Assembly: GCA_028717055.1 (NCBI GenBank)
Contig: JAQUOO010000001.1
Location: forward strand, 1 to 35,767
Reading direction: 5' to 3'
Length of the DNA stretch: 35,767 bases
From: Candidatus Omnitrophota bacterium
Lineage (GTDB): Bacteria > Omnitrophota > Gorgyraeia > Gygaellales > Profunditerraquicolaceae
In this document: positions 6,251-35,322 of the stretch, piece by piece
Layout: each line of letters opens with the position of its first letter
Position numbering within the stretch: position 1 is the stretch's first letter
Notes under the pieces: generated by a model
What the model saw: the letters and a program-made list of their open reading frames with translations, nothing else
What the model was told of the DNA's origin: nothing
The model's database searches: none
Program-made: the position numbers and the translations under genes

Positions 6251-6255
6251 GACTT

Positions 6256-10114: not shown

Positions 10115-10146
10115 TAATTGAAGGCGCAAGCTAAAAAGGGATAGGT

Positions 10147-10896: not shown

Positions 10897-10901
10897 AATA
10901 G

Positions 10902-11405: not shown

Positions 11406-11414
11406 ATCCAAACA

Positions 11415-12818
11415 GTGAGTGCTGAAAATAAGATCTGGATAGAAATTAAAGGACAGCTTTCTAGAAGCAGAAGAGTTGTCCTATTTTTTTCTCTTCTAAA
11501 CGCAATATTGTTAGTTTCGATAGCTTATGGCGCTCCAGTCGAATACGCCTCCGGGCAGAAAAATTCATGGTTTTCTTCCTGGTTCAGACAGGATACCCTT
11601 ACGGGGAATTGGGGAGGCCTGCGCAGCGATCTTGCGGGCAAGGGGATGGCTTTTTCTGCAAATTTCACTACGGACATTCTTGGCAATCCTGTTGGAGGCC
11701 TGGATCAGGCTGCCAGATATGCCGGCTTTTTGCAGGTTACGGCTGCGTTAGACCTTGAGAAGATAGCTTCCCTTAAAGGGTGGGCCTTGACCGCAACCAA
11801 CTACCTGGCTTCGGGAAGGAACCTTTCCAGTATAATCGGCAATTTCTATGGAGTTCAGGAGATTTATGCTTCCGGCGACTACTATTTTGGGATTTTAGAC
11901 CTTTCGGTAACGCTGCCGGGAGATAAAGTTATTTTAGAGGCGGGCCGGCTTTTTGCCGGCGATGTTTTTGCCACTTCTCCTTTGTGGCAATACTATGTAG
12001 GCGCCATCAATAGCAATATAATTTCTCTTTCCGGTAATATCTTTTTTCCTCATTTCCAGGTAGCAGCTTGGGGCGCGCGAGCCACCTATGAACCTGATAA
12101 GCAATGGCAGTTTGTCGGAGGCATCTATAATGCTGATCCAGCAGTCGGGAATTCGGATAAGCATGGTCTCGATTTCAATTTTGATACTGATCATGGTTAC
12201 TTGGCGATTGGCCAGTTAAGTTATAAACATCATCAGGAGCGCCAGGAAACAGGCCTTCCGGGAAGCGCTACTTTTGGAGGATACTATGAAAGTAGCAAAT
12301 TTACCGGTATTGCCGACTCAAGCCGGACTTGGCGGGGCAACTACGGATTCTATTTCATAATGGATCAAATGATTTACCGCGGCGATTGGCCGGAGTTCGA
12401 CGGGCCTTCGCATTTAAGTTCGGGAGCCAGATATTCTGAAAAAGTTAAGCATCCTTATTATCAGCAGAATGCTCAATTTGCAGACCGGCCTGTGGGATTA
12501 ACTGCCTGGTGGGCAGCATACCTTGCTCCGCAAAAAGATATAAACACCCAGACCTATCAGCTTGCCGCAGGATTGGTTTATCAAGGGTTGCCGCCTAACC
12601 GAAACCGCGATGTCACTGCTTTTTGCGTTATCTACGGTAATTTCAGCGATAAGCTTTCCGGCCAGGATGCCGAAACAGTGTTGGAACTCAATCATAGGTT
12701 TCAAATCAGCCCTTGGTGTTACATCACTCCGGATATCCAGTATATTTTTAATCCTAACGGCCAGCATAATATAGATAATGCCCTGGTTTTGGGCGCGGAA
12801 GCTAGTTTTAATTTTTAG
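11415..12818 (+). CDS. OprB-family carbohydrate-selective outer-membrane porin
   Basis: Signal peptide (RRVVLFFSLLNAILLVSIAYGAP), the OprB-typical GNWGGLRSDLAGKGM, and a C-terminal aromatic end (EASFNF). Confidence 0.7.
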   Translation: MSAENKIWIEIKGQLSRSRRVVLFFSLLNAILLVSIAYGAPVEYASGQKNSWFSSWFRQDTLTGNWGGLRSDLAGKGMAFSANFTTDILGNPVGGLDQAARYAGFLQVTAALDLEKIASLKGWALTATNYLASGRNLSSIIGNFYGVQEIYASGDYYFGILDLSVTLPGDKVILEAGRLFAGDVFATSPLWQYYVGAINSNIISLSGNIFFPHFQVAAWGARATYEPDKQWQFVGGIYNADPAVGNSDKHGLDFNFDTDHGYLAIGQLSYKHHQERQETGLPGSATFGGYYESSKFTGIADSSRTWRGNYGFYFIMDQMIYRGDWPEFDGPSHLSSGARYSEKVKHPYYQQNAQFADRPVGLTAWWAAYLAPQKDINTQTYQLAAGLVYQGLPPNRNRDVTAFCVIYGNFSDKLSGQDAETVLELNHRFQISPWCYITPDIQYIFNPNGQHNIDNALVLGAEASFNF

Positions 12819-12832
12819 CGAGGAGGCTGGGA

Positions 12833-17257: not shown

Positions 17258-17300
17258 AAAATAAAAGGTATTGGTTTACGAAGCGCAAGAGGGCGGGTTT

Positions 17301-18170
17301 ATGGAAAAAATTAAAACGGGCAAAGCAGACAGCATTAAGCGCATGAAGCTCTACCGGTATCCTGAACGCGTTTACAATGAAATCAGCGCGGCAGGATATG
17401 GAAAAGACGCCTTGCTTAAAGAAAAAGATATCAGGCTCTTTGACCAGTATCATTATCTGGGCACTGATGTGGTTGAGGATGCTATTAATTTCCTGGAGGC
17501 CGGCCTTCAAAGCAGGCTGATCGAGATTGGTTCAGGTTTAGGTGGCCCGGCAAGGTATCTGGCGGAGAAAGCAGGCTGCCGTGTGACTGCCGTCGAGCTC
17601 CAGCCGGATTTAAACCAGATCGCCTCTTCTTTGACAAAACGTTGCGGCTTATCCGGACTCGTGGAGCACTTTTGCGGGGATATCCTGGAATTCCCGGAAG
17701 ATGGCGGTAATTTCGATGCCGCGGTAAGCTGGCTGGCGATTTTACATATCCCGGACCGGCAAGCTCTTTTAAAGAAATGTTTTAATATTTTAAAACCAGC
17801 GGGCAAGGTTTTCTTTGAGGATTACTGCAAACTTGGAGAATTCAGCCCGGAAGAGGAAAAGATATTACGCGAGGATGTCCAGTGCCCGTATCTGCCCACG
17901 ACAGAGGAATACAAACGCCAGCTTATCGAGAACGGCTTTACGGATGTCAAGCTAGAGGATAAAACAGCCTGCTGGAGTGATTTTGTCAGGGGGCGCGTGG
18001 AGAAATTCATTGAAAACCGCCTTTGTTACGCCAAACTGCACGGTAACGAGGTCGCCGACGGAATGGAAGATTTCTATAAAAAGATATCACAGCTTTTTCA
18101 TAAAGGTAACCTCGGAGGAGTAAGGATAACCGCAGTTAAACCTGATGCTTACCTAAAGCGGCGTAGATAA
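17301..18170 (+). CDS. class I SAM-dependent methyltransferase
   Basis: LIEIGSGLGGPARYLAEKAGCRVTAVEL (motif I and post-I). The ATG at 17301 with an upstream GAGGG is preferred to the listed TTG at 17271. Confidence 0.7.
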   Translation: MEKIKTGKADSIKRMKLYRYPERVYNEISAAGYGKDALLKEKDIRLFDQYHYLGTDVVEDAINFLEAGLQSRLIEIGSGLGGPARYLAEKAGCRVTAVELQPDLNQIASSLTKRCGLSGLVEHFCGDILEFPEDGGNFDAAVSWLAILHIPDRQALLKKCFNILKPAGKVFFEDYCKLGEFSPEEEKILREDVQCPYLPTTEEYKRQLIENGFTDVKLEDKTACWSDFVRGRVEKFIENRLCYAKLHGNEVADGMEDFYKKISQLFHKGNLGGVRITAVKPDAYLKRRR

Positions 18171-21077: not shown

Positions 21078-21136
21078 AAGTTAGAAAACATCTATGGGTA
21101 TAAGATGTTTAAGGAAAGTAGTTTCTTAACATAAAA

Positions 21137-23998
21137 ATGATAGAAAATTTACTTGATCATTTTAGAAAAATTTGGGGCAAACGGCAGCTAGTTTTATACA
21201 TTATTTTTTGTTTGATTGTTTTGGTAGCTCTTTGGGTAATTCTGTTAGATGTTTCAATGCCAAGCGGTTTTATTGATTATTTGCTATTGGTTGCCGCGTT
21301 CATAATTTTATTACCGGTTTTCTTCTTATTTTCTAATGAGCTAAAAAAGGAAAATATTTGGCATGCTCATTCTTGGTGTTATTATGTTATTCGGTTATTA
21401 GTTTTCACCCCAATATTATATTTTATCTATAAACTTTGTAAACTGGGTTGGCATTCTATATCTGCGTATTCTATTTTTATATTTGCTGCTCCTGTTTGGT
21501 TAATTACGTTTATATTTTATAAAAATATCAGAATAGAATTTGGTGATAAATGGATTTTTGCTCCAGATTCAGTTGGTAAAAATGGCGATAAATTCAATTT
21601 TAAAAGCTCATCAGAACGTATTGCTAACAGAATCATTAACGATGATTCATCTCTAAAGGTATATCTACTTGATGGTAGCCAAGGTTACGGTAAATCATCT
21701 TATGCCAGAATGATAGTGGAATCTTTAGGAAATCCTAAGGATGTTCTTTATACCTATGTTTCTTTAACGGAAACCAATGAAGAAAACGATTTGAGTAAGC
21801 TATTTGAAGAACGCTGGGAAATAACGTTAGCAGAGAGGTATCCTAGGATTTGTTCTGGTTGTTTTGATGGTATTGCAGAAATTATTCGTATTCCAGAAAC
21901 GCGGTTTTCGTTAAAGGATTTGTTTATAATCTTTAAATATATAGATTTCCCAATTAATAAAACTAAAGTGATAGAAAACAAATCCGAATCTAGTGCTGTT
22001 AAATATTGCTCAGAAAAGAATGCAAGATTATTTAGATGCGTTTCTAAAATACATGAGAAAGTGTGGGCAATTGTTTTTGATGAAGTTGATCGCGCATTGC
22101 CACGAGAAATTTACCGATTAGTAGAAATTGTTGAGCGATTTAAATACCTAGAGGCAGGGGAATTTCCAGTTAAACTGCGGTTTTTTATTTGTGTATCTCG
22201 TGAGAGGCTTGATGGAATATTTGAGGATGTTAAAGAGACTAATGATAAGCCATTAGGCGGATTCATTAAGGACTTCTTCGATTTAAAAAATCAAGATACT
22301 ATTATTTCTCTTCCTCTTGTTTCCTTCAAGAAACGTTGGCAATTCGTAAGAGGACTACTCAAGAATATCTATAAAAATGGACATGAGCTATCTGTATATA
22401 AAAATACTATGATTTTTTCGGGTATTTCTAATACCGTTGCGAATTTACTGACTTCTGAACAATCTTTACAGGTTGCAATTAAATTATTATGCGAGGAATC
22501 TCCCAGGGTAGCAAAGAAATGTATTAATTCAGCATCTTTTTGGAATGGTGTGTTTTTTAAAAAAGGTGCGGTTGGATATATCTATATACGTTTCAGCGAT
22601 CTTGTTTTAATGGAATATATACGAACTCGATATAAATTTCTGTGGAATTTTATGGAAAAGACTATTGAGCAAATACTCCCTGAGGAAAATGAAGATAAGA
22701 AATTATTTGATATGAATGACTATAAAACTAGGCTTAGAATAGAAGAGACTACGGCTGCAGCTTTTGGTACTTCAAAGCAAACATTATCTCCCCAACAGAA
22801 ATTAGCAGGTTGGATTAGAGAATATTATCCTGGAATAGAAGAGAAACTTTTAGATAGAGCAATACAAATTTTTACCGCAGCAGCTTTTTGTTATATCCAG
22901 TATTTTGATACTTCTCCACGCGCCGTAGTAGGAAACTCTCTTGGAAACGGATGGAATCTATATAGATATCTTAGTTTAAGTGGGGACTATTATGAATTTG
23001 ATAAATTAGAAATGTGGTATTTAGAACATAAAAACAAAGAGATCGGAGGCGGAGGTGTTTTTGCAAAGGTTAAAAGTTCAAAGGATTTAATACGTTATGC
23101 TTTAAATATTTGCCAAATTAAAGATGTTCCCCCAAGAGTTTTATTAGATACGGCTAAAGAGTTATGGAGTAGGCTAAGATCAAAAAGAATTAAATTTTCC
23201 AAATATAATTATCATGATAATAGTTTTAGGGTAACCTCTATTGCTAGAATTCCCCCGTTGCTTTATTTAATACTCCGAGATGAGAAAAAACCGATTGCTG
23301 AAAGTAATGAAGCTGAAGAAGCTATTAAATTATTCATCGATATTCTTCGTTCACAAGATGTCGAAATTGAGCTTAAATTGTCTTTACTAGAATACATTAA
23401 GTCCTACGAGGTAATTGGCAGGCCTTATGGTCCGGAGATGCACATTTTATTTTATAAGAACCTATTAAATACAGAATATGGGAATGAAGTTAAAACTGCC
23501 TATAGCTATGTTTTTGATGATTTTAAAAAAAGATATTTAGACAATAAAAATAATAATATTTATGAATTAGAAGGAAATGCTTTATATGTTTTATATAATA
23601 TTTGGTCAGGAGAAAAGAATGGGCAGGAAATAAATAGAATTCACGAAATAGCTGAAAGGTTTCTTGATAAGGACAAAGAAACCATATTGAAACTTTGGAG
23701 TTGCCTAAAAGACCCTCAAGAGCTTAGCGTTGATATCAAAGATGTTATAAAACCAAATTCATTTAATATATTTCTTTTTGTTGATCTTGATAAATTAATT
23801 GAAGCGACAGATGTCGCAATTAAAAAAGGCAACCCTGCGTTTTCTGAAAAAGTTGAAAAATACAGAAGCCTTTCTTTAACAGGGAGGTTAAAGGTAGAAA
23901 CGCTTATTATACCAAAAGAAGATACACTTAGAAGTTTCATAAACAGTCTTTTAAAAAAAAGAAATCAATCGGATGATGGCTATGAGCAAAGAAATTAA
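21137..23998 (+). CDS. KAP-family P-loop NTPase with four N-terminal transmembrane helices
   Basis: Four hydrophobic helices within residues about 18-128. Walker A LLDGSQGYGKSSYARM (nt 21674-21700). Walker B VWAIVFDEVDRALPREIYRLVEIVERFKYL, matching the KAP hhhhDD/ExDR signature. The C-terminal 600 aa or so look alpha-helical and match nothing I recognise. A hand-counted sample at 21201-21300 is 34% GC. Confidence 0.65.
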   Translation: MIENLLDHFRKIWGKRQLVLYIIFCLIVLVALWVILLDVSMPSGFIDYLLLVAAFIILLPVFFLFSNELKKENIWHAHSWCYYVIRLLVFTPILYFIYKLCKLGWHSISAYSIFIFAAPVWLITFIFYKNIRIEFGDKWIFAPDSVGKNGDKFNFKSSSERIANRIINDDSSLKVYLLDGSQGYGKSSYARMIVESLGNPKDVLYTYVSLTETNEENDLSKLFEERWEITLAERYPRICSGCFDGIAEIIRIPETRFSLKDLFIIFKYIDFPINKTKVIENKSESSAVKYCSEKNARLFRCVSKIHEKVWAIVFDEVDRALPREIYRLVEIVERFKYLEAGEFPVKLRFFICVSRERLDGIFEDVKETNDKPLGGFIKDFFDLKNQDTIISLPLVSFKKRWQFVRGLLKNIYKNGHELSVYKNTMIFSGISNTVANLLTSEQSLQVAIKLLCEESPRVAKKCINSASFWNGVFFKKGAVGYIYIRFSDLVLMEYIRTRYKFLWNFMEKTIEQILPEENEDKKLFDMNDYKTRLRIEETTAAAFGTSKQTLSPQQKLAGWIREYYPGIEEKLLDRAIQIFTAAAFCYIQYFDTSPRAVVGNSLGNGWNLYRYLSLSGDYYEFDKLEMWYLEHKNKEIGGGGVFAKVKSSKDLIRYALNICQIKDVPPRVLLDTAKELWSRLRSKRIKFSKYNYHDNSFRVTSIARIPPLLYLILRDEKKPIAESNEAEEAIKLFIDILRSQDVEIELKLSLLEYIKSYEVIGRPYGPEMHILFYKNLLNTEYGNEVKTAYSYVFDDFKKRYLDNKNNNIYELEGNALYVLYNIWSGEKNGQEINRIHEIAERFLDKDKETILKLWSCLKDPQELSVDIKDVIKPNSFNIFLFVDLDKLIEATDVAIKKGNPAFSEKVEKYRSLSLTGRLKVETLIIPKEDTLRSFINSLLKKRNQSDDGYEQRN

Positions 23999-24665
23999 TA
24001 TAGTTATTTTATGGAATATTTTTTGTAATGCCTTACCACAGGTTATATCTTTTTTAGCGGGGTTTTTCACCGCCATATTTGCCCAGCCAATCAGGGAAAT
24101 GTTATTTAAACCTTGTTTGGAATTAAGTTTTAACAACACTAATGATTTTATATCTTTGACTCCAGAAAGTGGGCGCATGGAAGGTAAGCCAGCGCAATTT
24201 AAAGCTTATTATATAAGAGTAAAAGTAACTAATAATAAAAATATAACAGCCCAAAATTGTAAGGCTTATTTAGTTAATATAGAGAAACTAAATACTGAGA
24301 GCATTTTTAAATCAACCATTTATTGTGATAGTATACCTTTAGCATGGTCTTGTCAGAATATCGGAGAACAGTATGAAGGAATTAATATTAATAAAGGTGT
24401 AAATCAATTTGTAGATATTGTTACCACCAGGCATCTTGTTACTGAGGGGGATATATTTTATCCCAAAATGCAACAGCCAGATAATTCTGATATTCTATAT
24501 CCACAGATTAAATTATTGCCATTTAGGTATGAAAGTATATTTAAAGAGAAAGGAACTTTTCGTTTTACTATTCAAGTAACTTCCGCGAATGCCGATCCGC
24601 GTAATATTAGAATTGTATTGGTTTGGAATGGTAAGTGGGATAAGTTTGATGTATTACAAGGTTAG
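23973..24665 (+). CDS. membrane-anchored hypothetical protein (single N-terminal TM, beta-rich body)
   Basis: Candidate ATGs at 23973, 23976 and 23982 all overlap the end of the KAP gene (stop at 23996-23998), which suggests translational coupling. TM segment VILWNIFCNALPQVISFLAGFFTAIFA. No recognisable motif. Confidence 0.5.
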   Translation: MMAMSKEINIVILWNIFCNALPQVISFLAGFFTAIFAQPIREMLFKPCLELSFNNTNDFISLTPESGRMEGKPAQFKAYYIRVKVTNNKNITAQNCKAYLVNIEKLNTESIFKSTIYCDSIPLAWSCQNIGEQYEGININKGVNQFVDIVTTRHLVTEGDIFYPKMQQPDNSDILYPQIKLLPFRYESIFKEKGTFRFTIQVTSANADPRNIRIVLVWNGKWDKFDVLQG

Positions 24666-24763
24666 GCAACGCAATCCATGACGATAAAAGCTATTTAAAA
24701 AGAAATTAGTATTGAATCCGTTATATGTTGAAAGTCGTTTGGCATTATTGAAAAGGGATAGAG

Positions 24764-25882
24764 ATGCACAAGAAGTGTACTCTTTGCGGTAGTGAGATAA
24801 TAAAAGAGAATGATTCTGAAGAGCATGTCATTCCACAGGCAATAGGTGGACGTTTAACGGTAAAAGGTTTTATCTGTAAAGGATGTAATGGTAAGAGTGG
24901 ACAAGAGTGGGATGCAGTTTTAGCTAAGCAGTTAAATCCCTTGTCATTGTTTTTCGGTATAAAGCGTGAACGTGGGCAAGCCCCTTCTCAAAAGTTCCCA
25001 ACATCTACTGGTGGAGAATTTGAACATCATACTGATGGCAGTCTTTCTTTAGTGAAACCGGAATTCCATGTTAGGAAAGTTGATGGTAAAACGGAGATAA
25101 AGATTGTTGCGCGTTCAGATAAAGAATTAAACCGATTATTAAAAGGGCTGAAAAAGAAATATCCTCAAGTTAATATTGGAGATTTAAAAGCTAAAGCAAC
25201 TCATGAAACAATCCATCCTGATGGGTTCTTCCACTATAAGCTGAATGCTGGCGGTGAGAAGGCTGGTAGATCTCTTGTTAAAACAGCAATTGCTTTTGCG
25301 TATAGCATGGGTATTCCAATATCTCATTATGCAGATGCTTTAAGATATTTGAAAGAAAATAAATGCAACCCGCCGTTCGGTTATTATTCACAAGATGTAT
25401 TAATTAAACGTCCTATTGGTATTCCATTGCATTGCGTTGCGATTATCGGTGATCCGGAAGTGAAGCTTCTTTTATGTTATATAGAATATTTTTGCTTTGA
25501 GAGAGTAGTTATTTGTTTATCTGAACAATATGAAGGAGAAAAAATATCTAAACTTCACGCTTTAGATCCCGTATCTGGGGAGAGCATAGATATTGGTATT
25601 GATTTCCCTATTAAAGATTTAAAGGTTAAAGACTTATATGAGTATAAACTTTTTTCTCCACAAATGGTAGAGGAAGCTTTAGGTAATGTTATCGGCCCGC
25701 GCTTGAAAATAAAGCAAGATCAGGAGAGGAATGAAGTGATCGATAGGGCTATAAATACAGCTATTAAAAATAGCGGTTGTAAACCAGGAGAACCTTTTAC
25801 GGCGGAGCATATTAAGAAGATGGCCGATAATATTGCAGCGCAGATGCTGCCGTATATTATTCATATAAGAACGCGAAAATAA
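24764..25882 (+). CDS. HNH endonuclease domain protein with about 300-aa uncharacterised C-terminal region
   Basis: N-terminal CTLCGSEI...SEEHVIPQAIGGR...FICKGCNGKSG (nt 24776-24889) gives CxxC ... EH ... CxxCN, an HNH beta-beta-alpha-Me finger. Its stop at 25880-25882 is 1 nt before the hsdS ATG. Confidence 0.7.
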   Translation: MHKKCTLCGSEIIKENDSEEHVIPQAIGGRLTVKGFICKGCNGKSGQEWDAVLAKQLNPLSLFFGIKRERGQAPSQKFPTSTGGEFEHHTDGSLSLVKPEFHVRKVDGKTEIKIVARSDKELNRLLKGLKKKYPQVNIGDLKAKATHETIHPDGFFHYKLNAGGEKAGRSLVKTAIAFAYSMGIPISHYADALRYLKENKCNPPFGYYSQDVLIKRPIGIPLHCVAIIGDPEVKLLLCYIEYFCFERVVICLSEQYEGEKISKLHALDPVSGESIDIGIDFPIKDLKVKDLYEYKLFSPQMVEEALGNVIGPRLKIKQDQERNEVIDRAINTAIKNSGCKPGEPFTAEHIKKMADNIAAQMLPYIIHIRTRK

Positions 25883-25883
25883 G

Positions 25884-27143
25884 ATGACCGATTGCGTTAA
25901 ACTTAATGAAATAGGGACGATTTATTCTGGGGGAACACCTAGAACGAGTGTCACTAAATATTGGGATGGTAATATTGTTTGGGTGACTCCGAAAGATCTT
26001 AGTGAGGTAACATCTGTCTCTATAATAGATTCAACTCGGAAACTCACTAAATTGGGATTAAAAGAATCTTCTGCACAATTAATCCCCGCAGGTTCCGTGG
26101 TTCTTTCAAGTCGTGCCCCTATAGGATACGTTGCAATTGTTGATGTTGATTTTGCTACTAATCAGGGATGTAAATCAATAAAACCAGTAGCGTCCATCTA
26201 CAATAGATATGTTTATTACTATTTAAAATCGCAGACAAAAGAATTAAATCAACGTGGAAGCGGCACAACTTTTCTTGAACTATCAAAAGCTGCATTCTCA
26301 AATTTTGAGATTCCTATTTGTCCTCTTTTAGAACAAAAACGTATTGTCGCCAAGATTGAAAGTTTGTTTTCGCGGCTGGATAGCGCCAAGGATTCGCTGG
26401 AGCGTGTGCGCCAGGAGATCAAGCGCTATCGCCAGTCAGTGCTTAAATCGGCGTTTGAGGGGAAGTTAACGGGAAGCGTTAAATTTGAAATAAAGAAAAT
26501 ATGTGATGTAGGAGAAGTTATTACTGGTAATACCCCAAGTAAGAGAAGAAAAGATTATTATGGCGGTGATGTAAATTTCTTTAAGCCGACAGACCTTAAT
26601 GCTGGGATATTGATGTATGGCTCGCGAGAGAAATTGTCTAAGTTAGGTCTAGAAGAGGGGAGATTTGCCAAGGCTGGCTCAGTTTTGGTGACATGTATTG
26701 GTGCAACTATAGGGAAAACAGCTTTTATGAATGAAGACGGAGCCTTTAATCAGCAGATAAACGCTGTGATTCCACAGAAAGAGATAAGCGGAAAGTATCT
26801 TTATTATTTCTTTATTTCAAAAGGTTTTCAGGACGCGTTGATTGAAGGAGCGTCCTCAACAACTATGCCAATCATTAACAAAACAAGATTTGAAAATCTT
26901 ATTGTTTCTATTTGTGATCTTAAGCAACAGATTAAGATAGTGGAATCTATTGAGTCTCGTTTTGAACGGTCTAAGACATTGGAAGAAGCGGTCGAGCAAG
27001 GCATAACGAAAATTGAGCAACTAAAACAGAGTATCTTAAAGAAAGCCTTCGAAGGCAAGCTGGTTGAACCCGATCCAAATGATGAACCGGTGGAGCTATT
27101 ACTAGAGAGAATACAGAAAGAAAAGAATAAAATAAATTTTTAA
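25884..27143 (+). CDS. hsdS: Type I restriction-modification specificity subunit
   Basis: Two target-recognition halves, each followed by the conserved helical repeat: LLEQKRIVAKIESLFSRLD...RQSVLKSAFEGKL and DLKQQIKIVESIESRFE...KQSILKKAFEGKLV. Confidence 0.9.
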   Translation: MTDCVKLNEIGTIYSGGTPRTSVTKYWDGNIVWVTPKDLSEVTSVSIIDSTRKLTKLGLKESSAQLIPAGSVVLSSRAPIGYVAIVDVDFATNQGCKSIKPVASIYNRYVYYYLKSQTKELNQRGSGTTFLELSKAAFSNFEIPICPLLEQKRIVAKIESLFSRLDSAKDSLERVRQEIKRYRQSVLKSAFEGKLTGSVKFEIKKICDVGEVITGNTPSKRRKDYYGGDVNFFKPTDLNAGILMYGSREKLSKLGLEEGRFAKAGSVLVTCIGATIGKTAFMNEDGAFNQQINAVIPQKEISGKYLYYFFISKGFQDALIEGASSTTMPIINKTRFENLIVSICDLKQQIKIVESIESRFERSKTLEEAVEQGITKIEQLKQSILKKAFEGKLVEPDPNDEPVELLLERIQKEKNKINF

Positions 27144-27147
27144 TATT

Positions 27148-27576
27148 ATGGTTTCAGAGGAATACGAAAAAATTAATATCGCAGTTTCTTTGCTGGAAAC
27201 AGCTTGTAAATTATACAAAAAAGATGACTTTTTTGCTGTAATTAATCTCGCTGGAGCGAGTGAAGAGATCCTGGGTAAATATCTTAAGGCGAGAGGTAAA
27301 AAGAATGCATTAGAGTCGGATCGAGAAGCGCTTGTAGCAATAAATAAATATTTTGGGAAAGATTTAACCAATGAGAAAGCCACAATAATTTTAAATTATG
27401 TAAAGAATGCACTTAAACATTATAATGGGATAGACGATAGTGATAAGTTCATTTTAATGGATGCCCAAAGTGATTCTTCGTATTTACTTGTTAGAGCCTT
27501 AACTAATCTCTGGAGACTAGAGATGGAGTTAACTCCCATAATGAATGAAGTGTGGGAGATGATTGAGAAACGATAA
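27148..27576 (+). CDS. small alpha-helical protein, HEPN-like (non-canonical KNALKH in place of R-x4-H)
   Basis: 142 aa, starting 4 nt after the hsdS stop. AVINLAGASEEILGKYLKARG resembles the HEPN a-x-E-x-x-L-K helix. NYVKNALKH is at nt 27403-27420. This is a weak, motif-level call only. Confidence 0.35.
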   Translation: MVSEEYEKINIAVSLLETACKLYKKDDFFAVINLAGASEEILGKYLKARGKKNALESDREALVAINKYFGKDLTNEKATIILNYVKNALKHYNGIDDSDKFILMDAQSDSSYLLVRALTNLWRLEMELTPIMNEVWEMIEKR

Positions 27577-27602
27577 CGCTAGAGTGAGTAATGAGTAGTT
27601 CT

Positions 27603-27680
27603 ATGAGCGAGAATGAAATAGTCCAAAAGGTATGGAATTATTGCGATGTGCTGCGGGATGACGGGGCAGAAGAAATATAA
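27603..27680 (+). pseudogene. relic copy 1 of the hsdM 5' end (first 21 codons, then divergence and a stop)
   Basis: MSENEIVQKVWNYCDVLRDDG is identical in protein to the live hsdM N-terminus at 30400. There are 5 nt differences in 63 nt, all at synonymous third positions. Similarity ends at codon 22 and a TAA follows at 27678-27680. Confidence 0.85.
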
Positions 27681-27732
27681 ACGTATTTTAGATTGAAACC
27701 TATTTAATTATAAGTAGTTATGGCAAGAAATT

Positions 27733-27760
27733 ATTTATGTAAACTATAGTTTACATAAAT
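27733..27760. repeat. perfect 28-bp palindrome
   Basis: ATTTATGTAAACTA|TAGTTTACATAAAT, with exact 14+14 dyad symmetry. It ends 6 nt before the ATG at 27767. Confidence 0.9.
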
Positions 27761-27766
27761 TTCATT

Positions 27767-28251
27767 GTGCAAATTATGACGGTTGAATATACTACACAAT
27801 ATAGCGATTCTTCAAATTGGTTTAGACAGGCCAGAGAAATGTTTATTGTTTCTAAAATTCTTCGGGATGATTTTATGAACAGAAGAAAGAATCCCCCGAA
27901 GACGGAAGAAATGTTGGAATGTAGCGCGGGATTGCTTAAAGGGGCGATGTTCTTCTTAGGCTTATCGATAGAGAATGCTTTAAAAGGGTTTATATCAGAA
28001 TCGCGCCGAATGGAAGATTCCCCCGGAGTCATAATCTACGCAAATTAGCGACTTCGGCAAAGCAAAATCTTTCTCGCGAAGAACTTGTTTTATTAGATCG
28101 CCTGACGGTCTATATCAAGTGGGCAGGGAAATACCATATTCCGCTGGAGAAAGACGCTGATCAATTGAACACGTCGTTAAGGATGACTGTTCCTAATGAT
28201 TTCCGGATGGCAGAAAAATTGTTGATAGGTATGAAAGTATTTGGTGATTAA
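27767..28251 (+). pseudogene. HEPN-domain gene (classical PF05168-like) interrupted by a frameshift
   Basis: Frame A reads ...GLSIENALKGFISESRRMEDSP and stops at 28046-28048. The -1 frame continues with RSHNLRKLATSAKQNLSREELVLLDRLTVYIKWAGKYHIP...FGD and stops at 28249-28251. Together these give the HEPN pattern a-E-x-a-L-K ... H-x-L-x-x-L ... W-x-x-[RK]-Y. A C5 run at 28020-28024 is the likely indel site. Confidence 0.6.
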
Positions 28252-28336
28252 AACCAAAAAACGCTTTTGGGCGATTTCTTGAGAATTCTGTTAGATTTAT
28301 CGGTTCTGCGCGTCTATTGTTGTGGAGGCATAAACA

Positions 28337-28873
28337 ATGGACCAGCGCAAGCCAAATCGCCTAAAAGGTTACGATTATTCGCAGAATGGGTATTATTTTG
28401 TAACGATTTGCACGTATGGCAGGCAGGAATGGTTTGGGAAAATATCAAATGGGGATATGGAATTGAATACAAACGGTTGTATTGTATCCGCGTGTTGGAA
28501 TGATTTACCGAATCATTATCGGAATGTCGAATTGGATGAATTTATTGTAATGCCAAACCATGTGCATGGGATTATTGGGATTAATAATGTAGGGAACGGT
28601 TTGAAACCGTTCCCTACAACGGATCAATTAATACCATCCAAAACAAAAAACCACGGATTATCGGAAATTATCCGCGGATTAAAAACGTTTTCGTCACGGC
28701 GAATTAATGGAACAATTGAATCCGGCAATAAATTCCATTGGCAGAAATCGTTTTACGACCATATTATTCGGAATGAATTGTCGTTGAACCGCATTCGTGA
28801 ATATATTGTTAATAATCCAAGAAATTGGAACGAAGATGAGGAAAATATTTTTAAGGATAAGGGGAATTCATGA
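28337..28873 (+). CDS. IS200/IS605-type Y1 (HUH) transposase, RayT / REP-associated-like
   Basis: NRLKGYDYSQNGYYFVTICT, HUH motif MPNHVHGII, and the catalytic-Tyr region WQKSFYDHIIR. Solo gene with no tnpB. Confidence 0.75.
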   Translation: MDQRKPNRLKGYDYSQNGYYFVTICTYGRQEWFGKISNGDMELNTNGCIVSACWNDLPNHYRNVELDEFIVMPNHVHGIIGINNVGNGLKPFPTTDQLIPSKTKNHGLSEIIRGLKTFSSRRINGTIESGNKFHWQKSFYDHIIRNELSLNRIREYIVNNPRNWNEDEENIFKDKGNS

Positions 28874-28923
28874 GTGAAAATGAAATAGTCCAAAAAGTCT
28901 GGAATTACTGTATTATATTTTAG
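28870..28923 (+). pseudogene. relic copy 2 of the hsdM 5' end (first 14 codons)
   Basis: MSENEIVQKVWNYC followed by IIF and a stop. There are 3 nt differences from the live gene in 42 nt, all at synonymous third positions. Its ATG overlaps the transposase stop (ATGA). Confidence 0.8.
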
Positions 28924-28966
28924 TTGGGTCGTTACTAATGTGGTGATATAAGGGATCGAGATTAAT

Positions 28967-29746
28967 ATGGTTCAGGAAGCTGTGTGGCGATGGAATGTAA
29001 ATGATATTTGGCAGAGCTTTTCATCAATGTATCAGGAGATGGCTTTTTCTGATACAGCAACTAATACTATTGAGAGGTACCATCATTTAAGCGCGTGCCT
29101 TTTGTTTGGCGGGTGCGCTATTGAGTCTTTTTTGAATTCGAATATGAGAACTCATCTTAAGAAAAGCGAAGAATTGGAAGATAACGTGATCAAGCTGCTT
29201 CGCTATACCGCATTGCGTAAGAAGATTGAATCTTGGCCATCTGATATTTGCGGAGTCACAATCGACAAACAAGATCTAGATATCTTGCTAGAATTCCTTG
29301 ATCTCCGCAATGAAGTAACGCATAGAAAACGTAAGGATCATTCTTTATATAAAGAACTTGATGAAATATCTCCCATTAATTTTTTAGAAGCTGTGCAAAG
29401 AACATTTGTGCAGTTTTATTATGGACAGGGCAATTCTTTCCCTTATTGGTTACTTGGATGGAATTTTGTGGGGATGAATAGTGATTATACACATCCATGT
29501 TTAATGAATAACCAGCAATTTAAATATGCTTTGAATAGCATGGGGTTTAGAGTTCCCGCTAGTGACTATGGCGCTGCTAATGCATGGGAAGAAGAGAATA
29601 TGAAGGGGGTCGAAGCATTTTCCAGGTTGAAAAGAGATTATTACCTTAAAGCTCCGGATATAGAGCCGAAGAGTAAAATGTTTCACCGAGCTCCAAGATT
29701 ATGCAAGCGTTGGTGGGATAAGCAGCTTATTCTAGGGATAGATTAA
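28967..29746 (+). CDS. HEPN-domain protein with canonical R-x4-H motif
   Basis: 259 aa. GGCAIESFLNS helix and LDLRNEVTHRK (RNEVTH at nt 29306-29323), which matches the R-[NHQD]-x3-H signature of HEPN RNases. Confidence 0.55.
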   Translation: MVQEAVWRWNVNDIWQSFSSMYQEMAFSDTATNTIERYHHLSACLLFGGCAIESFLNSNMRTHLKKSEELEDNVIKLLRYTALRKKIESWPSDICGVTIDKQDLDILLEFLDLRNEVTHRKRKDHSLYKELDEISPINFLEAVQRTFVQFYYGQGNSFPYWLLGWNFVGMNSDYTHPCLMNNQQFKYALNSMGFRVPASDYGAANAWEEENMKGVEAFSRLKRDYYLKAPDIEPKSKMFHRAPRLCKRWWDKQLILGID

Positions 29747-29848
29747 TGTTTAAGAATTTCGGAGGCAAAGATACTTGAGGATACAGATGATTAATGGTTT
29801 GATAAAATTGAGCAGTTAAAAAGGCAAAACTCAAACAAAGGAGGGGCT

Positions 29849-30148
29849 GTGACTAAAGATAATAATGATTTAAAAAAGAAATTCCTTTCAGTGCTAAAAA
29901 TCATTGAAAGAATGCAGGATACAGAAACGAAAAACTTTATCAATAGAAATAATGGTGTCCCGATAGGCGTGGTCATGGGGGCAATGCACTATTTTGATAT
30001 GAAGGAGGTGCACGAAGTAGTAAGCGATATGTTGCAGTGTTTCGAGATTAAATTATCAAAATATTGCTTGACGCTTCCAAGTCCTGTTGATCAAACGAGT
30101 GAAACAGCTTTCTTGAGAACATGCGTTCTGCAAAAACGTAAAGATTGA
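29849..30148 (+). CDS. hypothetical small protein
   Basis: 99-aa ORF with a GTG start and AGGAGG 5 nt upstream. No recognisable motif. Confidence 0.4.
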   Translation: MTKDNNDLKKKFLSVLKIIERMQDTETKNFINRNNGVPIGVVMGAMHYFDMKEVHEVVSDMLQCFEIKLSKYCLTLPSPVDQTSETAFLRTCVLQKRKD

Positions 30149-30346
30149 TATCTGATTGTTATGGTAAACACGCATTAGTTGATTGGTTATCTCTAATTGT
30201 GGGTTTTTGTTTTAAAGCTGTAATTAAAACCATGGGAGGAGAAATGCTATATCAAACTTTAACATGTGGGGGCGCCCTGGCCCGACTATTAATCTTTGGG
30301 GGCAGCCAATGTTAATGATGCGCGTTAGCCAAGAAGGGCCAGAGCT

Positions 30347-30370
30347 AGGGTTCGATTCCCTTTGCCTCCA
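30347..30370 (+). other. tRNA/tmRNA 3'-end-like fragment (T-arm plus acceptor 3' strand), not an intact RNA gene
   Basis: AGGGTTCGATTCCCT (30347-30361) contains the canonical GGTTCGATTCC T-loop. It is followed by TTGCCTCC and A, with no encoded CCA. CTGGCCC (30277-30283) pairs with GGGCCAG (30336-30342) just upstream. It lies 30 nt before hsdM. Confidence 0.4.
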
Positions 30371-30399
30371 TTAATTTAGACAATTTAATAAGGATATGT

Positions 30400-31860
30400 A
30401 TGAGCGAAAATGAAATAGTCCAAAAGGTCTGGAATTACTGCGATGTTCTGCGGGATGATGGGGTCAGCTACGGCGATTATGTGGAGCAGTTGACCTATTT
30501 GCTGTTCCTGAAAATGTCCGATGAGCGGGATGAGTTGTTTCATGACAGCGAGATTCCGGCGAAGTATGACTGGAGGTCGCTTAAGAAACTGGAAGGCGAG
30601 CCGCTGGAGGGGCATTATATCACGGTGTTGCGGGAGTTGGGCAAACAGAAGGGGATTATCGGCAGGATTTTTAGCAAATCCCAGAATAAGATCCAGGATC
30701 CGGCTAAGCTGAAGCGGTTGATCAATATGATCGACGCCGAGAAATGGCTGGGGTTGGATATTGATATCAAGGGCGTGATTTATGAAGGGTTGCTGGAGAA
30801 GAATGCCCAGGATACCAAAGGCGGCGCCGGGCAGTATTTTACTCCCCGGCCTTTGATCAAGGCTATGGTGGAAGTGATGAAACCGCAATCGGGCATGAAG
30901 ATTTGCGATCCGGCTTGCGGCACCGGCGGGTTTTTGTTGAGTGCTTTTGATTATGTGATCAAGAATAATCCCGCCTTGTCCAAAGGCGGTAAGGAATTTA
31001 TGGTTAATGAGGCGTTGTATGGTGTGGATATCGTGGAATCGGTTGCCCGGTTGTGCGCAATGAATATGTATCTGCATGGAATCGGCTCCAAGCGCTGTCC
31101 GGTAGAAATGGCGGATTCTTTAGCGGCGAAAGGCAGCGAGCATTTTGACCTGGTCTTGACCAATCCGCCGTTCGGCAAGAAGAGTTCGACCACGGTTATC
31201 GCTGAAGACGGCAAGGCGGTGAAAGAAAAAGATTCCTATGAGCGCGATGATTTCTGGACCACGACTTCAAACAAGCAGCTGAATTTTGTCCAGCATATCG
31301 CCTCGATCCTGAAAGTCCACGGCCGGGCTGCGGTAGTGGTTCCGGATAACGTTTTATTTGAGGGCGGGGCAGGAGAGACGGTAAGAAGGAAGCTCCTGCA
31401 TGATTTTGACCTGCATACCATTTTGCGCCTGCCCACCGGTATTTTCTACGCCCAGGGAGTCAAGGCCAACGTGATCTTCTTCGACAAGAAGCCGGCGCAG
31501 GAAAAGCCCCGGACGTCCAAAATTTGGTTCTACGACCTGCGCACCAATAAACATTTTACCTTAAAAGAGAACACGCTAAAGTTCGAGGACCTGGCGGACT
31601 TCATTAAATGCTACAATCCGGACAACTGGGCCAAACGCAAAGAAAGCGAACGTTTTAAAGCGTATGATTATAACGAAATCCTCAAGCGCGACAAAGTAAG
31701 CCTGGACATCTTCTGGCTGAAAGACGAATCGCTGGAAGATTTAGAGAATCTGCCTGATCCTGATGAAATAGCTGAGGATATTGTGAAAGATCTAGAATCT
31801 GCGTTGGAGGAATTTAGTGGAGTATTGGAGGATTTAAAGATAAAGAAAGATAAGAAATAG
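30400..31860 (+). CDS. hsdM: Type I restriction-modification N6-adenine DNA methyltransferase subunit
   Basis: HsdM N-terminal helix MSENEIVQKVWNYCDVLRDDG. Motif I ICDPACGTGGFL and motif IV LVLTNPPFGKK. RBS AAGGA. Confidence 0.9.
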   Translation: MSENEIVQKVWNYCDVLRDDGVSYGDYVEQLTYLLFLKMSDERDELFHDSEIPAKYDWRSLKKLEGEPLEGHYITVLRELGKQKGIIGRIFSKSQNKIQDPAKLKRLINMIDAEKWLGLDIDIKGVIYEGLLEKNAQDTKGGAGQYFTPRPLIKAMVEVMKPQSGMKICDPACGTGGFLLSAFDYVIKNNPALSKGGKEFMVNEALYGVDIVESVARLCAMNMYLHGIGSKRCPVEMADSLAAKGSEHFDLVLTNPPFGKKSSTTVIAEDGKAVKEKDSYERDDFWTTTSNKQLNFVQHIASILKVHGRAAVVVPDNVLFEGGAGETVRRKLLHDFDLHTILRLPTGIFYAQGVKANVIFFDKKPAQEKPRTSKIWFYDLRTNKHFTLKENTLKFEDLADFIKCYNPDNWAKRKESERFKAYDYNEILKRDKVSLDIFWLKDESLEDLENLPDPDEIAEDIVKDLESALEEFSGVLEDLKIKKDKK

Positions 31861-31955: not shown

Positions 31956-31984
31956 TTGTAAACTATGACACCTAGTGTTATACT
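31956..31984 (+). promoter_or_regulatory. sigma70-like promoter for the downstream TA pair
   Basis: TTGTAA at 31956-31961, a 17-nt spacer containing ACAC-n3-GTGT, then TATACT at 31979-31984. Confidence 0.45.
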
Positions 31985-32001
31985 TTAGATGGAAAGGCAG
32001 T

Positions 32002-32376
32002 ATGAGGTATTTAAAGAATAACAGGTTTCAAAGAGATTTAAAAAACAATGGTTTGGATGACGAGAACTTAGAATCAGTATTAGACGATATTTTTGACGGC
32101 AGGGCAACACCGTTAGGAAGCAAGTTTTACAAGATTCGCGGGGCGAAAGAAGGGAAAGGTAAAAGAAGCGGGTTTAGAACCTTATTTTTCTGGAAAAAAG
32201 AGAAAATTATAGTTTTTTGTTTATTGTTCGCCAAGAATGAACAAGATAACTTAACTTCGGATGAAAAGAAAGTACTTAAAATTCTATCCAACGAATACGA
32301 TAAGTTGACAGATGGAGAAATTCAGCGGTTGATCAATGAGAAAACATTTACGGAGATTGGATATGTTAAGAAATAA
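32002..32376 (+). CDS. RelE/HigB-like addiction-module toxin (COG4737/DUF1044-like)
   Basis: The ATG at 32002 (RBS GGAAAGG) is preferred to the listed GTG at 31975, which lies inside the promoter. GSKFYKIRGAKEGKGKRSGFRTLFFWKKEKIIVFCLLFAKNEQDNL is characteristic of this family. Confidence 0.6.
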   Translation: MRYLKNNRFQRDLKNNGLDDENLESVLDDIFDGRATPLGSKFYKIRGAKEGKGKRSGFRTLFFWKKEKIIVFCLLFAKNEQDNLTSDEKKVLKILSNEYDKLTDGEIQRLINEKTFTEIGYVKK

Positions 32377-32686
32377 AAATAGTCATTCAAAAGTTATGGA
32401 TATGGTTGAAGAGGACCTGCATGCCATAAATAAGATCAAGGATACTTCTGAAAGCATTAGAAAGTTTAACAAGATTAGATATCTACCTCCGAAGCATTTC
32501 ACAAAAAACGATATAGTCAAAATTAGGTCAAATCTACACGTGAGCCAAGCGGTATTCGCTTTTCTTTTGAATGCCAGCGAAAGCACTGTTAAGAAATGGG
32601 AACTGGGCGCCAAGGAGCCCGGAGGCGCGAATGCCAGGTTATTGCAGATTATTGAAAAAAGGGGAGTTGAGATATTGAAAGTTTGA
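32363..32686 (+). CDS. XRE/HTH antitoxin (COG2944-like)
   Basis: C-terminal HTH LHVSQAVFAFLLNASESTVKKWELGAKEPGGANARLL. The ATG at 32363 overlaps the end of the toxin gene by 14 nt. The listed ATG at 32336 is also possible. Confidence 0.6.
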   Translation: MLRNKNSHSKVMDMVEEDLHAINKIKDTSESIRKFNKIRYLPPKHFTKNDIVKIRSNLHVSQAVFAFLLNASESTVKKWELGAKEPGGANARLLQIIEKRGVEILKV

Positions 32687-34188: not shown

Positions 34189-35322
34189 TTGAAATCTAAC
34201 AGATTATCCATAATTTCATCTCTTCTCATTTTTACCTTATGCGTTGCGCAGCCAATTGCGCAGGCGCAAGATCTTTATCCTGCCAAAGTAAAAGATATCT
34301 CCGATAGGGCCTACGGCCCCGAGGTTGCCAAACTTCTTGATTCCGCGAAACATTCCATCACTATATCGATGTATACTCTAAGCGTAGCCGCCAAAGAGCC
34401 CAATCCGCTGTCGCTTTTATTAAAAGATCTTCTGCAGGCGCGTTTACGCGGCGTTGCGGTTACGCTCTATCTCAATACGCGTTTCAATTACGATGCCGAC
34501 GTCCGCAAAAACATCGAAGAGAACCCTTCACTTAAGAAACTGCGGGATGCCGGATGCGTTATCCAACTGATATCCCGTAATCGCCGGCTTCATGACAAGC
34601 TTATAATCGTGGATAGCCGCTATGTGGTTGAAGGCAGCACCAATTGGTCGCTGTCAGCGCTTATGAATAATTTCGAATCAGCCACGCTGATAGATTCTCC
34701 GGAATTAGCTGGAGTCAAGCTCCAGCGCCTTGCTACTTTGCCTACGGTGCTTGATGATGCTAAAGCTAAAATTCCTCCTAAGCCGATCTATCTTGAAGGG
34801 TTACCCGCACAGATACATCTATCCGAGGTTCTTATTACCGGCAAACAATATTTTGCAGCAATGCTCAAGCGTGGAGATGAGCGTCTGATGGATACTTATT
34901 TGCTCCTAAAGGCTCACGCGGAATCCTCGGGCGAGCAGGAATTCTTCGTGGACCTGGAATCATTTGGTTTAAGTTTAGGTTTACCCTTGGAGTGGGACTA
35001 TACCGCCCTGCGTCGTCAATCAATTAGGGCTTTGAAAGAGCTCCAGAAACGCTACGGTTTGGTAAAAGTATCTTTCTTTTATGGCAGAGACGCGCGTGTT
35101 ATAATGACGGATACTCCGGGCGCGGTATTTCCGATAGATAGCGATATAGCCAAACCGGATCTTAAGCTAAAACATTCAGTGCGAGCGAAGTTCTTGCGCC
35201 TTATAACAGCTTATCTTGCGTCTAAGGGCGAGGATGCGGCAAAGATTACGGATGTCGAGCTTGCCGGGCGTTTTGGCTGCAGCAAGTGGACAATTGCCGA
35301 TGCCCGGAAAGATATAAAGTAG
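34189..35322 (+). CDS. secreted phospholipase-D-superfamily protein with a single HKD motif (Nuc-like) and a C-terminal HTH-like region
   Basis: TTG start. Signal peptide LSIISSLLIFTLCVAQPIAQAQ. HKD motif RLHDKLIIVDSRYVVEGSTNWS. C-terminal LAGRFGCSKWTIADARKDI. Confidence 0.6.
   Translation: MKSNRLSIISSLLIFTLCVAQPIAQAQDLYPAKVKDISDRAYGPEVAKLLDSAKHSITISMYTLSVAAKEPNPLSLLLKDLLQARLRGVAVTLYLNTRFNYDADVRKNIEENPSLKKLRDAGCVIQLISRNRRLHDKLIIVDSRYVVEGSTNWSLSALMNNFESATLIDSPELAGVKLQRLATLPTVLDDAKAKIPPKPIYLEGLPAQIHLSEVLITGKQYFAAMLKRGDERLMDTYLLLKAHAESSGEQEFFVDLESFGLSLGLPLEWDYTALRRQSIRALKELQKRYGLVKVSFFYGRDARVIMTDTPGAVFPIDSDIAKPDLKLKHSVRAKFLRLITAYLASKGEDAAKITDVELAGRFGCSKWTIADARKDIK

Follow-up and report, generated by a model that had tools for sequence, protein, structure and literature searches.

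We report that a chromosomal type I restriction-modification operon, predicted with the order hsdR-cargo-hsdS-cargo-hsdM in a 35,767-nucleotide (nt) stretch of DNA from a Candidatus Omnitrophota bacterium (contig JAQUOO010000001.1, positions 1 to 35,767; referred to as the window), holds two truncated copies of the hsdM 5' end upstream of the live hsdM gene. These fragments, relic 1 and relic 2, are probably scars of serial cassette gain, each gain involving a homologous crossover in hsdM at one end and an illegitimate join at the other.

The three hsdM 5' ends were recovered independently by MAFFT alignment, a repeat finder and blastn-short, and constitute direct repeats on one strand within 2.8 kb (repeat finder) that are separated by unrelated DNA. 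Relic 1 is identical to hsdM nt 1-64 at 59 of 64 positions (27603-27666; E 4e-20, blastn-short), with likeness reaching about 14 nt further upstream through the ribosome-binding region (27589-27602). Its differences to the live gene at nt 9, 30, 39, 48 and 60 correspond to codons 3, 10, 13, 16 and 20 and each is a synonymous third-position change; both this and the recurrence of the first 21 codons agree with the original prediction, which was made from the DNA letters. Past nt 64 relic 1 reads GCA GAA GAA ATA TAA, and the short open reading frame (ORF; 27603-27680) comprises 26 amino acids (aa) ending GAEEI*. Relic 2 matches hsdM nt 1-41 at 39 of 41 positions (E 1.5e-13, blastn-short) and differs at nt 6 and 27, i.e. 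codons 2 and 9; its short ORF is 17 aa long with a TAG stop at 28921-28923. It had been predicted to span 14 codons and to bring the number of synonymous third-position differences to eight. The match stands for nt 1-41 and seven differences are clear, but the eighth, TGC to TGT in codon 14, is ambiguous: it lies at nt 42 (28911), which is the first junction base and could equally be unrelated downstream DNA. TGT at this codon is present in some live alleles. All seven clear differences are third-position and synonymous, and no indel or non-synonymous difference between the relics and live hsdM emerged upon re-alignment of the three copies. The synonymous share of possible single-base changes is 18% in the relic 1 span and 14% in the relic 2 span, and random mutation would give seven synonymous changes out of seven with P ~3.5e-6, a stronger argument than the (1/3)^8 put forward originally.

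Related loci (given L numbers) were gathered by scanning representative genomes and metagenomes for a degenerate hsdM start, resulting in about 20 relevant loci. Those that carry an organism name are Candidatus Omnitrophota metagenome-assembled genomes, except one labelled uncultured Planctomycetales; L027 is Ga0265297_10004792, L079 is ERZ25039602 contig_59029, and sample Ga0265297 is the source of L007, L010, L027 and L051. Their coordinates are given with hsdM on the + strand, and for loci reported by the scan on the - strand (L002, L003, L005, L006, L024, L027, L036, L051 and L061) the tool coordinate equals locus length + 1 - the quoted coordinate. A scan of viral contigs for the hsdM start gave 0 matches, and an exact-protein look-up of HsdM matched no record.

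Comparison with 15 distinct live hsdM 5' ends from these loci provides insight into the origin of the relics. The first 33 aa are identical in all 15 alleles, which vary at 24 sites (22 third positions and two synonymous first positions). All seven clear relic differences fall on sites that are polymorphic among these alleles, and every relic base is found in them. Moreover, the live allele nearest to relic 1 is that of L007, with three differences, compared to five for its own neighbouring live gene. Since the relic differences all match standing polymorphism, the comparison supports that the relics are parts of distinct hsdM alleles and not decayed local duplicates, as had been proposed. The possibility that the hsdM start was duplicated in tandem in this genome and then drifted would account for same-strand direct repeats within 2.8 kb. 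It is effectively refuted by the allele comparison and the mutation odds: besides the seven of seven synonymous differences, all segregating elsewhere, and the closer match of relic 1 to L007, the copies are separated by unrelated DNA for which homologues exist in other loci, and relics that did decay, in other loci, do show amino-acid changes. The window relics carry no private change in 105 nt and thus look young or recently overwritten. Codons 1-40 are the best conserved block of hsdM (89-90% nt and 100% aa identity), while full-length HsdM homologues are 90-97% identical to the window protein, and the first 40 codons are, as judged from these alignments, a natural homology block bordering the variable region.

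With respect to the operon as a whole, hsdR and hsdM appear as conserved bookends around an AT-rich, quickly replaced middle of toxin-like or defence-like cargo and a swappable hsdS. Nine cargo genes or pseudogenes, all on the + strand, lie between hsdR and hsdM; the GC content is 29-41% over 21.1-30.4 kb compared to 48-56% in hsdR and hsdM, and the change is abrupt at the ends of both genes. HsdR carries helicase/translocase and nuclease domains and is classified by NCBIfam as a type I endonuclease, EcoAI/FtnUII-like (PRK11448, E 6e-122). The two Methylase_S stretches of HsdS represent two target-recognition domains, and HsdM has an N6-adenine methylase domain together with the HsdM N-terminal domain (Pfam). 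The same hsdR...hsdS...hsdM architecture with differing cargo was present in about 15 loci from independent assemblies, and in every locus that is long enough the order is hsdR, cargo, hsdS, cargo, hsdM. The cargo varies from locus to locus and includes, in sister loci, Fic, Hypoth_Ymh, AbiGi-like, AAA_14/DUF4143, D12 methylase and KAP-like NTPase genes. DNA homology between loci begins about 15 nt before the hsdM ATG and has the hsdR stop as its other limit; for hsdS it covers the central and C-terminal conserved regions only. Between the window and L027, L024, L010, L051 and L007, nt identity is 80-96% in hsdR and 80-93% in hsdM, and the middle is unrelated.

Based on its flank, L027 corresponds to this chromosomal site in a closely related strain. 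At the nt level, the two are 99-100% identical over the left flank and hsdR up to about 19260; identity then drops to 93-94% to the hsdR stop, there is no homology over 21071-30391, and in hsdM it amounts to about 92%. Such a step in identity within hsdR, together with the wholly different middle, indicates homologous replacement with a crossover inside hsdR. This places a breakpoint in the hsdR flank at ~19260; on the right the L027 contig ends before any return to high identity. Comparing strains for the presence or absence of cassettes had been suggested earlier, and the wholly different middle of this near-isogenic strain is what such a comparison reveals. We also noted that 17467-17666, in a methyltransferase gene (17271-18170), is only 69% identical to L027 (oriented ~400-640), against 98-99% on either side. 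A short internal duplication seems to be present at ~400-640 in L027; an assembly artefact or a minor patch of recombination might be responsible.

Stranded hsd fragments are not confined to the window (Table 1). We identified 5'-anchored hsdM relics in at least eight other loci, usually with amino-acid changes (Q8P, R18W, Q30H, E3K, K9R, D19Y, V10I and V16L). In L079, a distant type I locus, six of six differences between relic and live gene are synonymous. The breakpoint in L004 is nt 41, the same as for relic 2 in the window. The decayed fragment in L066 scores 21 against a shuffle 95th percentile of 15, and the insert that splits the relic in L057 has no other copy. A census of short ORFs with only the HsdM N-terminal domain gave 626 protein clusters of 46-79 aa with the HsdM N-terminus only; this is not a clean relic count, since many are frameshifted genes, and L079 was the only true relic array to come from it. 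Jettenia and L078 were considered as relic arrays and rejected as frameshifted genes or error-rich assemblies.

Table 1. Positions of the hsd genes, relics and cargo in the window and in related loci (relic lengths and breakpoints are in hsdM nt unless stated otherwise)
Locus	Feature	Position	Strand	Description
Window	hsdR	18399-21077	+	892 aa; Pfam ResIII, Helicase_C, EcoEI_R_C, HSDR_N; conserved left anchor
Window	cargo between hsdR and hsdS	21137-25882	+	953-aa (weak KAP P-loop match), 230-aa and 372-aa (N-terminal HNH_5) genes; Pfam
Window	hsdS	25884-27143	+	419 aa; Pfam Methylase_S, two stretches; NCBIfam type I specificity subunit
Window	orf142	27148-27576	+	cargo, directly upstream of relic 1
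Window	relic 1	27589-27666	+	hsdM ribosome-binding region and nt 1-64
Window	perfect 30-nt palindrome	27733-27762	.	TTATTTATGTAAACTATAGTTTACATAAAT; head of cassette after relic 1
Window	HEPN-like pseudogene	27776-28250	+	frameshift near 28010-28030 (three-frame translation)
Window	REP-associated tyrosine transposase-like (Y1) gene	28337-28873	+	178 aa; Pfam Y1_Tnp
Window	relic 2	28870-28910	+	hsdM nt 1-41; 28911 ambiguous
Window	orf259	28967-29746	+	cargo of widespread 259-aa family
Window	hsdS C-terminal relic	29762-29821	+	decayed; EAKILEDTDD*WFDKIEQLK
Window	orf99	29849-30148	+	cargo; no family match (Pfam, PADLOC)
Window	tRNA-like element	30268-30373	+	27 nt upstream of hsdM; conserved block from about 30220
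Window	live hsdM	30400-31860	+	486 aa; Pfam N6_Mtase E 1e-73, HsdM_N E 2e-13; conserved right anchor of variable region
L027	two hsdM relics			breaking near nt 60 and nt 66
L002, L009, L051, L056, L010	one common 94-nt hsdM relic			followed by Fic gene
L010	extra hsdM start	6237-6983		about 30 nt, 1-nt insertion, fused in frame to 248-aa cargo ORF
L010	hsdR 3' relic	3037-3092		56 nt; 290 nt after real hsdR stop
L057	same 94-nt hsdM relic			split by 167-nt insert at nt 44/71
L036	hsdM relic			about 59 nt
L079	type I locus with hsdR-hsdS-hsdM order	10001-13027		128-nt hsdM relic, DUF2283 and small ORFs, hsdM
L004	Fic cassette and isolated hsdM nt 1-41			followed by unrelated genes
L066	decayed hsdM nt 39-70 fragment			after 88% homologue of orf259

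The relics could in principle be kept for what they encode, i.e. the 26-aa and 17-aa relic ORFs might serve as leader peptides or translation-coupling devices for the cargo. Both window relics do keep the hsdM ribosome-binding region and ATG, without amino-acid change in the hsdM-derived part, and in L010 the relic start is fused in frame to the 248-aa cargo ORF, so that this ORF is provided with the ribosome-binding site and ATG of hsdM. Relics elsewhere, however, vary in length (30-128 nt) and carry non-conservative changes, and the many relics with amino-acid changes imply that these sequences are not kept for coding capacity. In the window, moreover, the tails of the two relic ORFs are mutually unrelated and the ORFs end 95 and 43 nt before the next gene start, so they would not couple translation. 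We consider a coding role to be among the least probable of the explanations.

For the gain of cassettes, states before and after the event can be compared in related loci. L017 has a gene pair (282 aa and 193 aa) directly before a full hsdM, whereas in L057 and L027 a truncated hsdM start, other cargo and then the live hsdM come after the homologous pair; collinearity with L017 reaches hsdM nt 41 in L057 and nt 68 in L027. These states, with the replaced middle of L027 and the identity step in hsdR, bear out the proposal that repeated recombination stranded the previous hsdM start. One junction can be read at the nt level: in L027 relic 1, hsdM nt 1-60 runs into the final ~60 nt of an hsdS at GATGAC(G), which is hsdM nt 55-61 and common to both parents. 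The hsdS-tail match scores 22 against a shuffle maximum of 14, and when the DNA after each relic was tested as an hsdS tail only that after L027 relic 1 was significant.

In the window a decayed hsdS tail is also present, at a different place. It is 84% identical to nt 1074-1130 of the L006 hsdS (E 1e-9, blastn), and its translation was compared with 11 HsdS C-termini. Because this tail sits just upstream of orf99, the block of orf99, tRNA-like element and hsdM appears to have arrived with another hsdS tail, and together with the hsdR 3' relic in L010 it suggests that the imported pieces are ragged-ended fragments of other hsd loci. The proposal that each event delivered a cassette therefore holds overall, but at least one imported piece began inside hsdS (29762-29821) and was not a neat cassette.

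We propose that each relic was once the start of the live hsdM, of a different allele, and was cut off when incoming DNA from another hsd locus, with cargo and its own hsdM start, was joined to it. One end of the incoming piece would be integrated by a RecA-type homologous crossover within the body of hsdM, and the other end by an illegitimate, microhomology-type join within the first ~100 nt of the resident hsdM, a route corresponding to homology-facilitated illegitimate recombination (HFIR). Only short relics would persist, since recombination with the live copy would remove long direct repeats; long N-terminal hsdM fragments may in addition be harmful. After the event, the relic and the live 5' end would flank the cassette, such that cassette or upstream context could be exchanged between strains by homologous recombination. 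Such exchange would overwrite the relic with fresh allele sequence and so maintain its synonymous-only appearance.

The common 94-nt relic is informative in this respect. Together with the Fic cassette it is found behind three upstream contexts, i.e. a 299-aa gene, a tRNA-like element and a 193-aa gene. Over the aligned block of relic, Fic cassette and hsdM start, L010 and L002 are 96.8% identical, yet the relic has six differences in nt 1-52 and none in nt 53-94, a distribution with P ~0.007 at uniform divergence (our Poisson estimate), suggesting a crossover inside the relic. These data point to relics that stay recombinationally active, with relic and live 5' end acting as homology arms around the cassette. 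Taken together, the stranded hsdM starts, the hsdS and hsdR tails, the microhomology junction and the identity step in hsdR indicate that ordinary recombination among related operons, tidy or untidy, drives cargo turnover, and not a dedicated mobile element. No integrase or recombinase was found in the window in Pfam scans of the + strand ORFs of 90 aa or more, which covered all but two overlapping ones, and the hsdM 5' repeat has no hairpin potential (z-scores +0.2 to -1.1). The latter also led us to reject the repeat as an attC-like folding site.

Several points weigh against serial cassette gain by crossover and illegitimate join. No before state was found for the window's own relics via the orf142 homologues, and no donor sequences were identified against which microhomology at the junctions 27666/27667 and 28910/28911 could be judged. 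The window fits more than one order of events. The junctions cluster at hsdM nt 39-44 (window relic 2, L004, L066 and L057) and nt 59-72; two coinciding junctions among about nine in a 65-nt span would not be surprising (about 0.4 by our birthday estimate), but three to four near nt 41 hint that one site is favoured. Relic 2 directly adjoins a Y1 (REP-associated) transposase gene, and further Y1 genes are located close to related cargo in L002 and L063. Moreover, the route would require DNA uptake, by natural competence or otherwise, in these uncultured bacteria, and the presence of three copies on one molecule is taken from the assembly.

Some of these points would fit a dedicated, site-preferring insertion into the hsdM 5' end that left the relics as a split target, either by Y1/REP-mobilised single-stranded elements inserting 3' of TTAC/TTAT or by a recombinase using the hsdM start as attachment site. 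The junctions at nt 41 (window relic 2 and L004), 39-41 (L066) and 44 (L057) adjoin GGAATTAYTG. Further, hsdM nt 1-41 lies to the left of orf259 in the window and nt 39-70 to the right of its 88% homologue in L066, an arrangement expected from a simple insertion at about nt 41; relic 2 comes immediately after a REP-type Y1 transposase gene; and an identical 30-nt palindrome follows relics breaking at nt 64 (window) and nt 66 (L027). However, no two of the sequences that follow the nt-41 to nt-44 junctions on the right are related, and the right ends of the orf259 segment differ between the window, which keeps GTTTAAGAAT as in the non-hsd locus L067, and L066, so the segment is not a fixed-ended element. 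Breakpoints are spread between nt 30 and nt 210 (the window copies end at nt 41 and 64, those elsewhere at nt 30, 44, 59, 60, 66, 94 and 128), one of the junctions is simply a microhomology join with the tail of an hsdS, and hsdS and hsdR relics are present as well. Compared to IS200/IS605 or REP/RAYT elements, three to four junctions (nt 39-44) do lie beside TTAC/TTAT, but the inserted ends are unrelated and no terminal hairpins or shared ends were seen; no integrase was found among the scanned window ORFs, and the palindrome is restricted to the window and the near-isogenic L027. On this evidence we regard site-preferring insertion as improbable, although it ranks above the other alternatives to serial cassette gain.

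The palindrome TTATTTATGTAAACTATAGTTTACATAAAT is identical in L027 (oriented ~11259-11288), where it lies downstream of the second relic with a perfect TTGACA-N17-TATAAT just upstream, and it was found nowhere else among the loci fetched. In both loci it immediately precedes the first post-relic gene, although this gene differs, being the HEPN-like pseudogene in the window whereas in L027 it encodes an AAA_14/DUF4143 ATPase. The palindrome may be an operator; an RptR operator was rejected, the sequence not being TAGCTA. The promoter-like sequence upstream of the HEPN-like pseudogene looks degenerate compared with that in L027, and a promoter and terminator scan of 26.9-30.5 kb showed no enrichment.

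As to the Y1 gene, its match to NCBIfam REP_Tyr_transpos (E 1e-18) is below the cut-off, and its TGA overlaps the relic 2 ATG (ATGA). A 75%-identical copy is located downstream of hsdM in L002, with DNA homology ending at 28849. Inside the Y1 coding sequence, at 28588-28618, we noted a perfect palindrome with a 15-bp stem and a GTAG start (TGTAGGGAACGGTTT A AAACCGTTCCCTACA), which sits between the HUH and tyrosine motifs and is 100% conserved in the L002 homologue (tool coordinates 387-415). No further copies of the GTAG-type palindrome were detected in the window, and no REP family was detected.

An assembly origin of the arrangement was also weighed, i.e. that the contig is a chimera of co-existing strains joined through the common hsdM 5' sequence. 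The window is probably a metagenome assembly, and related strains with different cargo do co-occur in Ga0265297 (L007, L010, L027 and L051). The longest exact run common to any two copies is, however, 20 nt, which makes repeat collapse by an assembler unlikely and is below the k-mer sizes that determine the final contigs. A mis-join via the repeat would, moreover, run on into hsdM and not into unrelated DNA, so each junction between a relic and unrelated DNA must exist in the reads. Finally, relic arrays of the same design occur in at least eight independent assemblies from different projects and assemblers. A chimera is accordingly very unlikely, at about the same low level as a coding role for the relics or marginally above it.

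A more far-reaching idea, which we put forward tentatively and consider unlikely, is that the conserved first ~120 nt of hsdM and its stranded copies constitute a recombinase-free gene-capture platform. A cassette with a relic on its left and live hsdM on its right would be a ready knock-in construct for related operons; it could enter by ordinary homologous recombination without hsdM ever being inactivated, and be transcribed by read-through of the operon. The preferred junctions near nt 41 and nt 60-72, and the tRNA-like element, possibly as an RNase P-type processing signal, would then be parts of the platform. This element combines an acceptor-type stem of 6-7 bp with a further stem of 10 bp and a T arm whose loop reads GGTTCGA, and is directly preceded by the fully conserved GTAATTAAAACCATRGGAGGAGAAATG. 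Copies are present in the window, in L010 (7172-7287, before the 94-nt relic) and in L024 (oriented 8352-8467, after hsdS; tool 4909-5024, - strand); 7 of 33 pairs are compensatory among the three, and a covariance model found no copy beyond them. The match to the Rfam tmRNA model (23 bits, E 1e-6) is below the gathering score and covers the model ends only. ARAGORN predicted no tRNA or tmRNA, and nothing in the window reached an Rfam gathering score. The element may be an RNA processing signal.

Defence genes embedded in type I restriction-modification operons are known: PrrC in EcoprrI is one case and TgvAB of Vibrio cholerae VPI-2 another (PMC11411939), and a survey of such genes was presented by Payne et al. 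2024 (bioRxiv 10.1101/2024.01.29.577857). The loci described here resemble these in having non-hsd genes between hsd genes on the same strand and, in sister loci, cargo of toxin/defence families (Fic, AbiGi-like, Hypoth_Ymh, HEPN-like and KAP-like). They differ in that up to nine genes are embedded, the order is hsdR-hsdS-hsdM, the cargo is replaced completely between near-identical strains, and stranded hsdM, hsdS and hsdR fragments record cargo entry; in addition, the window's own, putatively defence-related cargo has no PADLOC match. How embedded defence or toxin genes enter such operons, and why they turn over fast, is largely undescribed. In the Payne et al. 2024 preprint the words 'recombination', 'remnant', 'truncated' and 'homologous' do not occur, and a literature phrase search for hsdM fragments or remnants gave nothing comparable. 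The present loci hold a readable record, i.e. stranded hsdM starts, hsdS and hsdR tails, a microhomology junction and an identity step in hsdR.

The closest known process is flank-anchored cassette exchange, in which different whole-gene cassettes are found, by strain, between two conserved genes and are exchanged via flanking homologous recombination without a dedicated recombinase. This is reportedly the case for the 'minimal mobile elements' of Neisseria (said to have been described by Saunders and Snyder in 2002) and for the E. coli immigration control region (likewise, by Sibley and Raleigh in 2004). The same conserved flanking genes with different content between strains are what we find, and the identity step inside hsdR is the footprint expected of such exchange. 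As to a recombinase, no integrase was present among the scanned ORFs, yet there is the REP-type Y1 transposase-like gene. Unlike in minimal mobile elements, the flanks are subunits of one enzyme with the third subunit, hsdS, in the swapped middle, and the exchanges are often untidy, leaving serial duplicated anchor ends.

For the untidy end HFIR is a precedent. Joins of 3-10 bp are documented in naturally transformable bacteria (PMC6382021, citing de Vries and Wackernagel 2002), and the GATGAC(G) junction in L027 fits such a microhomology join combined with a homologous anchor. HFIR has, however, been shown in the laboratory only, in competent Acinetobacter, Pseudomonas stutzeri and Streptococcus, whereas we deduce it from scars in uncultured bacteria. 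Island arrays at tRNA/tmRNA ends and integron arrays likewise have co-directional cassettes, with one copy of a common short sequence delimiting each of them, and an intact live target gene at one end; here the copies end at different positions rather than at one core and no integrase was found, and in comparison with integrons there is neither an integrase among the scanned ORFs nor an attC-like hairpin. Phase-variable type I systems with silent partial hsdS copies, e.g. the pneumococcal ivr locus (PMC7672463), also have partial hsd copies beside a live operon as recombination substrates. In ivr-type loci inverted repeats in hsdS and an invertase switch specificity reversibly; here the repeats of the hsdM start are direct, no invertase was found, and recombination between them could only delete cargo. 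If relics do serve as short homology arms, they would offer a simple and general route for cargo between uncultured strains, and relic arrays could be used to mark, date and trace cassette gain in metagenomes.

Turning to the cargo itself, the three genes between hsdR and hsdS form a tight operon with a GC content of 29-36% and no counterpart in any related locus compared. The 230-aa protein has no family match (Pfam), and the 953-aa/230-aa/HNH_5 set is a candidate new embedded defence module. For orf142 searches of Pfam, PADLOC and NCBIfam gave no family match; it has six homologues, of which one (L063) is outside any hsd locus beside a Y1 transposase gene, and two (L064 and L065) are on short contigs with non-hsd neighbours and no hsdM match. 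The joined protein of the HEPN-like pseudogene gives a sub-threshold Pfam HEPN match (E 1.5e-3). The product of orf259 is probably a RiboL-PSP/Apea-type HEPN protein, with an RNEVTH motif recognised by eye and weak Pfam HEPN_RiboL-PSP and HEPN_Apea matches; one of its 71 homologues is named RiboL-PSP-HEPN by UniRef, and the contexts of the family are varied and mostly non-hsd, with L066 as the only informative one.

The first 18 kb of the window hold ordinary metabolic genes, and all large ORFs over 18.4-35.7 kb are on the + strand (ORF maps). To the right of hsdM are a RelE/MqsA-like pair, a methyltransferase and a PLD (DrmC-like) protein. Specifically, a RelE-family toxin and an MqsA/HTH-type antitoxin are encoded directly 3' of hsdM (31975-32686), and 2 kb further along a PLD-family protein matching DISARM DrmC models (34189-35322), so that defence or toxin-antitoxin genes flank the right side of the operon too.

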